From contig BTUM01000004.1 of NCBI GenBank assembly GCA_045863235.1, positions 1 to 64,000 on the forward strand: a stretch of DNA of 64,000 nt. Direction: 5' to 3'. This DNA comes from Candidatus Xenobia bacterium. GTDB lineage: Bacteria > Vulcanimicrobiota > Xenobia > Xenobiales > QWHO01. Positions 62,252-64,000 of this stretch are shown here, piece by piece. The notes beneath the pieces are model-generated. The model made no database searches. It worked only from the letters and a program-made list of their open reading frames with translations, and was not told where the DNA came from. Position 1 is the stretch's first letter, and each line of letters begins with the position of its first letter. A program made the position numbers and the translations under genes.

Positions 62252-62489
62252 ACTGCTGGCGCTCCTTGAACATTTGCTCCAGGACCGACCGCACCCAGGC
62301 AACTCCGCCCTGCTCATGCAACCCAGGCAAAAACCTCTGGTTCTGCGCGAACCATGAGTTGCGGCGCGCCGTAACGGTTAGGCTTTGTTGACGCGTACTT
62401 GCGAGGGCGTCCCCCGCCGCGCTTTGGGAGAGTTACACGGTCGGTCACTCCCTCAGCATATACCTGAAGTCAGAAATTCGGCCTTGCAC

Positions 62490-62585
62490 TTTAATATCCT
62501 CGAGGCGCGATTCATCCTCAGCGACTACCGGCGCAGATACAACGACGAGCGACCCCACAGCTCGCTTGGGTATTTGAAACCAACG
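62490..62585 (+). mobile_element. IS3-family transposase C-terminal remnant
   Basis: EARFILSDYRRRYNDERPHSSLGYLKP, the integrase-core C-terminal signature. Confidence 0.7.
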
Positions 62586-62735
62586 GAGGCCATCACGGAC
62601 GCGAGCGGGGCTGTCGTGGCCCGCTACGAGTTCGACGCGTGGGGGGCCCAGCTCGGCTCCAGCTCGCCTTCTCGGGAGGGTTCAGCAACGGCTACGTGGG
62701 CGGTACGCACGGACGCGACCACCAGGCTCCTACGC
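62586..62735 (+). pseudogene. Rhs core remnant
   Basis: AITDASGAVVARYEFDAWG, then GFSNGYVGG and VRTDATT in different frames. Confidence 0.6.
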
Positions 62736-63079
62736 TCAACGGACCCTGGCCGGAGGCTTAAGGCCATGGAGCACTCCTGACCCGGTCACCATGAAGCCAG
62801 GTCGCCGGGCAGGCCGTCGCGCCCGGCCATCGCTTCGGCCAGGTGGCGCTGGAAGGTCTTGCCCGAAGTCTCAGACAGTGTCACGCTGTCTGCCATCGGC
62901 TCGAGGTCGCCCGGTTGGCCGTCTCGTCCGGCCAGGGCCAGAGCCAGTTGGTAGGTGAAGCGGTCGCGCCCGCCGGGCTGTCCGAATAACGAATTTCCGT
63001 TCACCAAAATGCACCCGCCAGATCCCAAAATCTTGTTCTATCTCTCTCTAAGCAGAACATAGGCAACAAGCCTGAAAGA

Positions 63080-63811
63080 ATGCTGAAAGAGGCGGCGAAG
63101 ATCCTTACCGTGCGGTTCTTTCTCCCCATCGCTCTTCTGCTTCTCGTGGGCCTGGCCCAGGATTGGCGCCGTTTAGAGCCGATTTCCCCGCCTCCAGCGG
63201 GGATGGTGCTCGTTCCGGCGGGCGAGTTCTGGATGGGCAGCGATGACCCCCGGGCCGACGAGGAGTCGCGGCCCCTGCACAGGGTCCGACTGCCGGCTTT
63301 CTACATCGACCGCACCGAGGTGACCAACCGCCAGGTGCGCTCGGTCAAGCCGGACTTCGCCTTCCCCGAGGGGCGCGAGGACCATCCGGCCACTGGCCTG
63401 ACCCGAGAGCAAGCCGAGCAGGTGCTGTCGGCCCTGGGCAAGCGCCTGCCCACCGGGGCCGAGTGGGAGAAGGCGGCCCGGGGCGAGGATGCTCGCACCT
63501 ACCCCTGGGGCGAGCATCCTCCCGAGGGGAGAGCCAACGTGGGGCGCATCGGCGAGCACAAGTGCGCCAGCCTCTCCCTGCAACCGGTGGGGAGCTATCC
63601 TCAGGGAGCCAGCCCTTACGGCTGCCTGGACATGATCGGCAACGCCTTCGAGTGGGTCTCTGACGACCACCCCGGCCCTCCCGTGCGCCACATCCTGCGC
63701 GGGGGGGCCATCGGCTACCCCGAGCGCTACTGCACCACCTACGCCGTGACCATCGAGGACACCGGCGTTACCTGAAACGAAGTCGGTTTTCGCGGAGCGA
63801 AGACACCATGA
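63080..63811 (+). CDS. FGE/SUMF1-fold exported protein with in-frame TGA (candidate selenocysteine) at 63773-63775
   Basis: MVLVPAGEFWMGS, FYIDRTEVTN, RLPTGAEWEKAARG, DMIGNAFEW, RGG; after TGA the frame continues NEVGFRGAKTP to a stop at 63809-63811. Confidence 0.8.
63786..63804 (+). promoter_or_regulatory. Candidate bacterial SECIS hairpin
   Basis: GUUUUCGC-GGA-GCGAAGAC; 18 nt separate the UGA from the loop. Confidence 0.55.
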
Positions 63812-64000
63812 CCTTGACAAAGCTGGTTCTGAAGGCGCTCTTGCTGGTGCTCCTGGGTTACACCCTGGGCACCCTGATCGTGTTCTGCCGCCTGCGCCCC
63901 CTGGTGGTGCTGCTCTACGCGGCCCCGGTCGGCCTGCTGCTCTATCTCTTGGCCCGCAAGATCCGCTCGCTGGGGCCGGCCAGGGAGCCCGAACGGGAAT
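63808..64000 (+). CDS. Membrane protein, truncated by window end
   Basis: MTLTKLVLKALLLVLLGYTLG...; ATG overlaps TGA 63809-63811; open to the window end. Confidence 0.65.
   Translation, partial: MTLTKLVLKALLLVLLGYTLGTLIVFCRLRPLVVLLYAAPVGLLLYLLARKIRSLGPAREPERE

Follow-up and report, generated by a model that had tools for sequence, protein, structure and literature searches.

An apparently uncatalogued family of bacterial selenoproteins on the FGE/C-type-lectin fold

A gene in Candidatus Xenobia bacterium almost certainly encodes a real selenoprotein, as judged from its sequence and those of its relatives, with UGA codon 232 read as selenocysteine (Sec). The gene lies near the end of the window, the 64,000-nucleotide stretch of contig BTUM01000004.1 that was analysed. 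It apparently represents a well-supported, uncatalogued selenoprotein family on the FGE/C-type-lectin fold that would use the known bacterial Sec mechanism. The wider proposal, a Sec protein that would carry out a selenol/thiol redox step in the cell envelope at Sec232, resolved by Cys162, is given a probability of about 0.55. The features of the locus are collected in Table 1.

Table 1. Features of the selenoprotein locus, in window coordinates
Feature	Position	Strand	Basis or remark
CDS of the predicted 243-aa selenoprotein (FGE-sulfatase / C-type-lectin fold)	63080..63811	+	True stop TGA 63809-63811; Pfam, predicted structure, structural matches
Signal peptide or anchor, basic then hydrophobic, ~residues 1-27	63080..63160	+	Boundary by eye from sequence
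Cys162 (HKCAS loop), candidate resolving Cys	63563..63565	+	Cys in 43/43 truncated (Sec) forms and 52/70 Cys forms; loop pLDDT ~70
RGGAIGY motif	63698..63718	+	Ala210 at the position of the FGE catalytic Ser; Tyr213 where the CxxxxC insert of FGE begins
Cys218 (RYCTT), not conserved	63731..63733	+	Cys in 22/43 Sec forms and 8/70 Cys forms
Family signature E226-x4-T231-U232-N-E-V-G-F-R	63755..63793	+	E226 and T231 in 113/113 homologues
In-frame UGA, predicted Sec232	63773..63775	+	Conserved TGA in orthologues, Cys in homologues, hairpin conservation
SECIS hairpin, 8-bp stem and GGA loop	63786..63804	+	Stem 63786-63793 pairs with 63797-63804; loop 63794-63796, 18 nt after the UGA
Start of 82-aa hydrophobic ORF, overlapping the stop	63808..64000 (L001:3808-4053)	+	Translationally coupled; an amino-acid permease then follows beyond the window

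Reading frame, hairpin and Sec machinery

The first-pass annotation, made from the letters alone, had proposed a selenoprotein from an ORF that stops just before a GFR motif, and the frame is as it described. The ORF of 231 residues (63080-63775, forward strand) ends at TGA 63773-63775, which stands 11 codons upstream of the true end; with UGA 232 read as Sec, the protein continues as NEVGFRGAKTP up to TGA 63809-63811, and this stop overlaps the ATG of the next ORF (ATGA 63808-63811). Read-through extends the match to PF03781 from model positions 3-193 to positions 3-254 of 255, and the selenoprotein scores 127.9 bits against a Pfam gathering cut-off of 23.3, in keeping with the FGE/SUMF1 fold named at the outset. 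The TGA is not a sequencing error, a doubt that had also been raised, because the codon is covered by three independent assemblies (X1, X2 and X3, contigs from three other studies), none of them listed with a different letter at it, and the same TGA stands in 16 other genomes of the class. Contigs from RNA runs (X3, X14) cover the gene, a type of contig that cannot show transcription. At the other end of the protein, 51 of the 53 homologues that could be scored have a hydrophobic stretch at the N-terminus, with a lipobox in some. This comparative evidence shows an export signal, and the selenoprotein is probably exported or membrane-anchored in the cell envelope, as the annotation had supposed.

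The hairpin downstream of the UGA is also there as first drawn, with its 8-bp stem and its GGA loop 18 nt after the codon (63786-63804), and it meets the bacterial SECIS consensus. So do 419 of the 3239 long TGA-ending ORFs in this genome of 66% GC when the general bSECIS model is applied, and 39 pass a stricter shape. On its own the hairpin does not stand out from chance (z = -1.2; 21 of 200 shuffles fold as well), and its energy was rejected as stand-alone evidence, being not significant in either the shuffles or the genome-wide scan. It is the conservation of the hairpin across sequences, not the hairpin itself, that is evidence.

That conservation was read from loci collected with a degenerate pattern that allowed TGA, TGC or TGT at the Sec codon. 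The pattern gave 74 loci in GTDB genomes, from which five were dropped as chance, leaving 26 TGA and 43 TGY genes; 14 of the 26 come from the same genomes as the class orthologues described below. At the fixed register, 26/26 TGA genes have a stem of 7 bp or more (7-9 bp) versus 3/43 TGY genes, and the hairpin reaches -7.5 in 25 of the 26, the remaining one standing at -6.7. Codons +5, +6 and +8 are TTT, CGC and GCG in every one of the 26, though the pattern permitted alternatives. The same codons vary in the 43 TGY genes (TTC 24 and TTT 19, four different Arg codons, and seven codons at +8), and TTT makes up only 21% of the Phe codons in the Xenobia genome. In the alignment of the TGA genes, 99.5% of cells pair, against 35-69% in slid controls, with a structure taken from one aligned sequence, which favours it. 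One stem pair is seen as U-A, A-U and C-G, which are compensatory changes. The locus thereby offers a clean natural case of an RNA signal that freezes synonymous codons within a conserved protein motif.

Metagenomic loci extend the comparison. The pattern found 80, of which five were dropped as chance, giving 16 TGA and 59 TGY loci. A relaxed hairpin test is passed by 14 of the 16 TGA loci versus 8 of the 59 TGY loci, the latter weakly (-1.1 to -4.0 kcal/mol), and 14 of the 16 obey the rule of an early G in the loop. Eleven TGA loci keep the register. In three others (L131, L186 and L189) the stem is shifted by one base, TTC and CGG codons replacing TTT and AAR, and 7-8 bp are kept; the last two (L136 and L151) have a stem with a 5-nt loop that lacks the early G, possibly a non-canonical SECIS.

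The host carries the full decoding machinery that the proposal called for: selA, selB and selD are present above curated cut-offs, selD itself with an in-frame TGA, and selC, the tRNA-Sec, scores 68.7 bits and is the sole tRNA with anticodon TCA in the genome. A motif scan returned further Sec candidates whose hairpin loops lie at +18 (FdhA), +19 (MsrA), +17 (an AhpC/TSA protein) and +19 (an exported CxxU protein) after the UGA, so the +18 spacing of the present gene matches local usage; the SelD hairpin is placed differently. It is scarcely credible that codon reassignment or leaky read-through puts Trp, Gly or Cys, in place of Sec, at the UGA. TGA is an ordinary stop in this genome (3239 long ORFs), including at the selenoprotein gene's own end, no tRNA other than tRNA-Sec has a TCA anticodon, and none of the 120 protein matches listed has Trp or Gly at the column.

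Several of these other genes are of interest in their own right. FdhA (G000:C36:51285, reverse strand), a Sec-type MsrA with an N-terminal hydrophobic segment (G000:C77:24950, reverse strand; L222) and an AhpC/TSA UxxC protein (G000:C14:17116, reverse strand; L221) each have a SECIS-like hairpin. The exported CxxU protein (G000:C13:64029, forward strand; L220:174-710) has 179 residues, the sequence TTCPV-U-KYG and its hairpin loop at +19; it matches nothing in Pfam or NCBIfam and may belong to the catalogued 'redoxin family' or be another uncatalogued selenoprotein. In one relative, the selA match (G007:C21:69523-70815) is reported with one internal TGA, which may be the terminal stop only. 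In the Xenobia genome, ARAGORN reports AGC, ACC and AAC among the tRNA anticodons, which is unusual in bacteria.

Homologues at the Sec column

A protein search that used no motif found 17 orthologue-level matches in 44 genomes of the class, in two families and at 46-100% identity. Each carries a single TGA, always in the same column, and [NHDK][DE]VGFRGAK comes after it, with codons that vary synonymously; selA is present in all 17 genomes. More widely, the Sec column in the 120 protein matches listed holds Cys in 70, while 50 end exactly before it and none has another residue (ends read from protein records); the alignment of homologues thus yields the Cys/UGA pairing that the first-pass annotation had looked for. 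The 70 Cys forms comprise 68 that match the GFR expression and two with TCNDV and a variant ending. Among 353 generic domains of the fold used as a control, Cys occurs in this column three times, one of them in a family member. That set came from a profile search over 1.84 billion representatives; multi-domain FGE-repeat proteins overwhelmed its results, which were used for control only.

The 50 matches that end at the column are, as annotated in the databases, proteins that stop there, and the hairpin alone is not significant; both would suit a UGA that is a true stop, leaving a truncated or dead protein of 231 residues and a hairpin that is incidental or a terminator. This is very improbable. 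The domain would lose its terminal GFR strand, the codon is TGA and never TAA or TAG in 17/17 motif-free orthologues (46-95% identity), the peptide after it is kept while its codons change synonymously, and the column aligns to Cys alone. No terminator-like or promoter-like site was found at the selenoprotein locus. Decoding of the UGA as Sec would instead correct a systematic mis-annotation, in which 50 of the 120 matches listed are about 12 residues too short.

The machinery follows the codon. None of the TGA genomes tested lacks both selA and selB: of the 26 in GTDB, 24 have selA and the remaining two selB, accompanied in one case by selD and selC. Among the 43 TGY genomes, whose completeness is not given, selA is present in 17. 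The TGA forms occur mainly in Vulcanimicrobiota/Eremiobacterota and Armatimonadota (Chthonomonadales, Armatimonas), and the Cys forms in Verrucomicrobiota, Hydrogenedentota, Lentisphaerota, Nitrospirota and other Armatimonadota, according to record titles. When the pattern was searched across the phylum, 17 of 401 genomes had the motif, all of them from two families, and it was not found in the other 384 searched; the ESM Atlas returned only unnamed PF03781 clusters.

A tree was built from 67 family rows and two paralogues, with the Sec column removed and five fragments left out. The Sec/Cys label needs two changes on this tree, and the TGA genes form essentially one clade, so that the TGA counts are not independent of one another. 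Given a weakly supported outgroup position (85/74), the pattern reads as one gain of Sec from Cys and one reversion. The putative revertant (L107, genome G109) is a Cys form nested in the Sec clade that lacks the stem; its genome keeps selABCD, and its SelD is also a Cys form. Reversion after loss of the Sec machinery was considered and rejected for this genome, where the TAG in selA is the normal gene end and selB, selD and selC are present.

Fold, cleft and proposed chemistry

The AlphaFold model (114 sequences) has a mean pLDDT of 94.8, the loop of Cys162 being lowest at ~70. Its best structural match is CalU17 (Z 27.8, rmsd 1.9, 205 aligned residues), and EgtB, SUMF2, FGE and TvpA follow within ~2 Z units (Z 25-28, Foldseek and VIA matches), so the fold does not discriminate between functions. 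The fold of C-type lectins (CLec) is presented as a general scaffold for ligand binding in the available text of PMC5006420.

Comparison with human FGE places Sec232 at Ala358, on the rim of the substrate cleft, with Glu226 at Asn352, Thr231 at Ser357 and Glu234 at Asn360 (alignments numbered from the C336S and C341S entries). In the accessible text of PMC9241360, Ala358 and Asn360 are among the active-site contacts of a docked peptide. For T. curvata FGE, the part of PMC6676471 consulted has Ser290 binding a substrate Arg and Phe194 adjoining the catalytic Cys269; by numbering offset, Ser290 is probably the equivalent of Ser357, and Phe194 would fall in the loop that carries Cys162. The placing of Sec near the FGE active site in the first-pass annotation thus held, at the rim of the cleft. 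The Cu-binding pair of FGE (human C336 and C341) is absent, and the family has RGGAxGY with no CxxxxC. Since this catalytic Cys pair is missing, comparative evidence shows that the family is not an FGE/SUMF1 enzyme, and Sec232 does not replace an FGE catalytic Cys.

Residue conservation was assessed in 113 of the 120 homologues (43 truncated or Sec forms and 70 Cys forms), with the generic domains as control. The position of the FGE catalytic Ser (human S333) is Ala in 112 of the 113, and that of the FGE Trp (W299) is Trp in 108 and Phe in the Xenobia protein. Tyr213 is invariant, as are Glu226 and Thr231, and the signature E-x4-T-[C/U]-[NH]-[DE], which FGE and SUMF2 lack, is seldom seen in generic domains. 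Two Cys residues had been suggested as partners of the Sec. The one in HKCAS, Cys162, is the likely partner through a predicted Sec-Cys bond, although a resolving Cys is not universal, as 18 of the 70 Cys forms have no Cys in the loop; the one in RYCTT, Cys218, was rejected for want of conservation (Table 1).

In the proposed mechanism, SelB bound to the hairpin would insert Sec at UGA 232, and translation would then run on through the GFR strand, closing the fold; the comparative data support this decoding step strongly. The FGE-type C-type-lectin fold would be the scaffold of an exported or membrane-anchored protein, with Sec232 (Cys in the non-Sec relatives) as a conserved nucleophile on the cleft rim beside invariant Thr231, Glu226, Asp/Glu234 and Tyr213. 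A cleft-bound substrate that is oxidised or electrophilic, for instance a disulfide, a sulfoxide or a peroxide, may be attacked by the selenolate. The adduct would be resolved by Cys162, which sits on the adjacent mobile loop, to a selenenylsulfide that envelope reductants would re-reduce by analogy with MsrA or 2-Cys peroxiredoxins.

The same cleft could be read as a new metal site, in which Sec232 is a ligand for a soft metal (Cu, Zn, Hg or similar), completed by Cys162, Glu226 and Asp/Glu234, in a metalloenzyme, metal chaperone or scavenger. Cu(I) in FGE is bound through two Cys located in this cleft (PMC5324649 and PMC6676471, available parts), several catalogued selenoproteins bind metal (Table 1 of PMC13188914, as accessible), and invariant Glu, Asp, Tyr and Thr surround Sec232. 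However, the FGE CxxxxC pair is absent, just one chalcogen residue is universal and no metal-transport gene neighbourhood recurs among 96 flanking proteins, and the metal site is judged unlikely, at about one chance in five.

Some FGE-fold proteins, such as CalU17 and CarF, act in natural-product self-protection. The Xenobia protein might similarly be a covalent trap or detoxifier, its cleft binding a reactive small molecule that Sec/Cys232 captures or cleaves. CalU17 is the top structural match, and the gene stands alone with no conserved operon and encodes a probably exported protein; yet the next four matches lie within ~2 Z of CalU17, and no biosynthetic cluster recurs nearby among the 96 flanking proteins. 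This role is rather improbable.

The neighbourhood as a whole is uninformative about partners: six-frame ORF clustering and Pfam searches of the 96 flanking proteins (95 of 126 picked, plus the window's downstream permease) found no conserved neighbour or redox partner, and synteny holds at genus level only. Two of the 96 are redoxin-like and one is a sulfatase neighbour. The 82-residue ORF has no family match in its first 64 residues, and the linkage to the permease is seen in this genus only. Just upstream, at window positions 62385-62780 on the forward strand, an ORF fuses a fragment of an IS3-type integrase core with an RHS-repeat fragment and looks like mobile-element debris; on the same side of the gene in L082, a close relative, lies a fragment of a DDE transposase.

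Because Sec marks a functional residue, it locates the active site of an FGE-like subfamily that is widespread and has no name, and whose Cys forms are open to direct expression and assay. A bolder version of the envelope redox reading is tentative and somewhat doubtful: the protein may be a cell-surface enzyme and the first selenoenzyme to use the C-type-lectin/FGE fold. A ligand-binding scaffold would then have gained an E-x4-T-U catalytic site that is new and has no relation to the thioredoxin fold, with undescribed envelope redox or C-S/C-Se chemistry. If so, its production would depend on selenium supply, since the Sec precedes the strand that closes the fold.

Comparison with known selenoproteins and FGE-fold proteins

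The first-pass annotation did not know this as an established selenoprotein family, and the catalogues agree. PF03781 is absent from the 119 families in Table 1 of the 2026 catalogue (PMC13188914, available text searched whole), where the families of Haft and Tolstoy 2025 are covered as table rows. SUMF1, formylglycine, EgtB and sulfatase are all missing as terms from the deep-Sep paper and its four supplements (PMC12013277), and from the accessible text and supplement of BSepDB, perhaps excluding Table S2 (PMC13326102), and the planctomycete candidate table, as available, holds no FGE-fold selenoprotein (PMC4807772). A full-text literature search for the FGE fold together with selenoproteins, covering papers outside subscription, returned nothing relevant, and no selenoprotein model of NCBIfam 20.0 matches the Xenobia protein or three homologues. 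The gene would thus add a selenoprotein family on a fold missing from the 2026 catalogue, in whose accessible text most characterised selenoproteins are thioredoxin-like (PMC13188914).

With the catalogued bacterial bSECIS genes (FdhA, SelD, MsrA, Prx and others among the 119 families) the gene has in common an in-frame UGA, Cys/Sec pairing and a selABCD host, and its hairpin fits their consensus model in spacing (18 nt), loop (3 nt with a G), stem (8 bp) and energy (-7.8 to -9.2 kcal/mol). In contrast with them, the protein has no CxxU or UxxC motif, its domain is not in their table and its Sec lies 11 residues from the C-terminus, so that the SECIS encodes the last strand of the fold.

With FGE (SUMF1; PDB 1y1e, 2q17 and 6s07) the protein shares the fold (Z ~25, rmsd 2.6), the GNxxEW, RGG and GFR motifs and the cleft. 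It is shorter than FGE, lacks the Cu-binding CxxxxC insert, and has Ala at Ser333 and Sec at Ala358 rather than at a catalytic Cys. The sulfoxide and selenoxide synthases EgtB, OvoA, SenA and OvsA have a C-terminal FGE-like domain in common with it, whereas the Xenobia protein is single-domain. These synthases use selenium in the substrate and are not known to use it as a protein residue. Scores against the NCBIfam models of the EgtB/OvoA/SenA/OvsA type are far below cut-off (41.8 versus 360 bits; 37.8 versus 420), as they are for all the EgtB, SenA, PvdO and GldK equivalogs (PvdO 29.7 versus 500 bits). The single-domain FGE-fold proteins CalU17, PvdO, CarF, ToxD, SUMF2 and the DGR target TvpA have the fold in common with the Xenobia protein (Z 21.6-27.8), at 26-32% identity.
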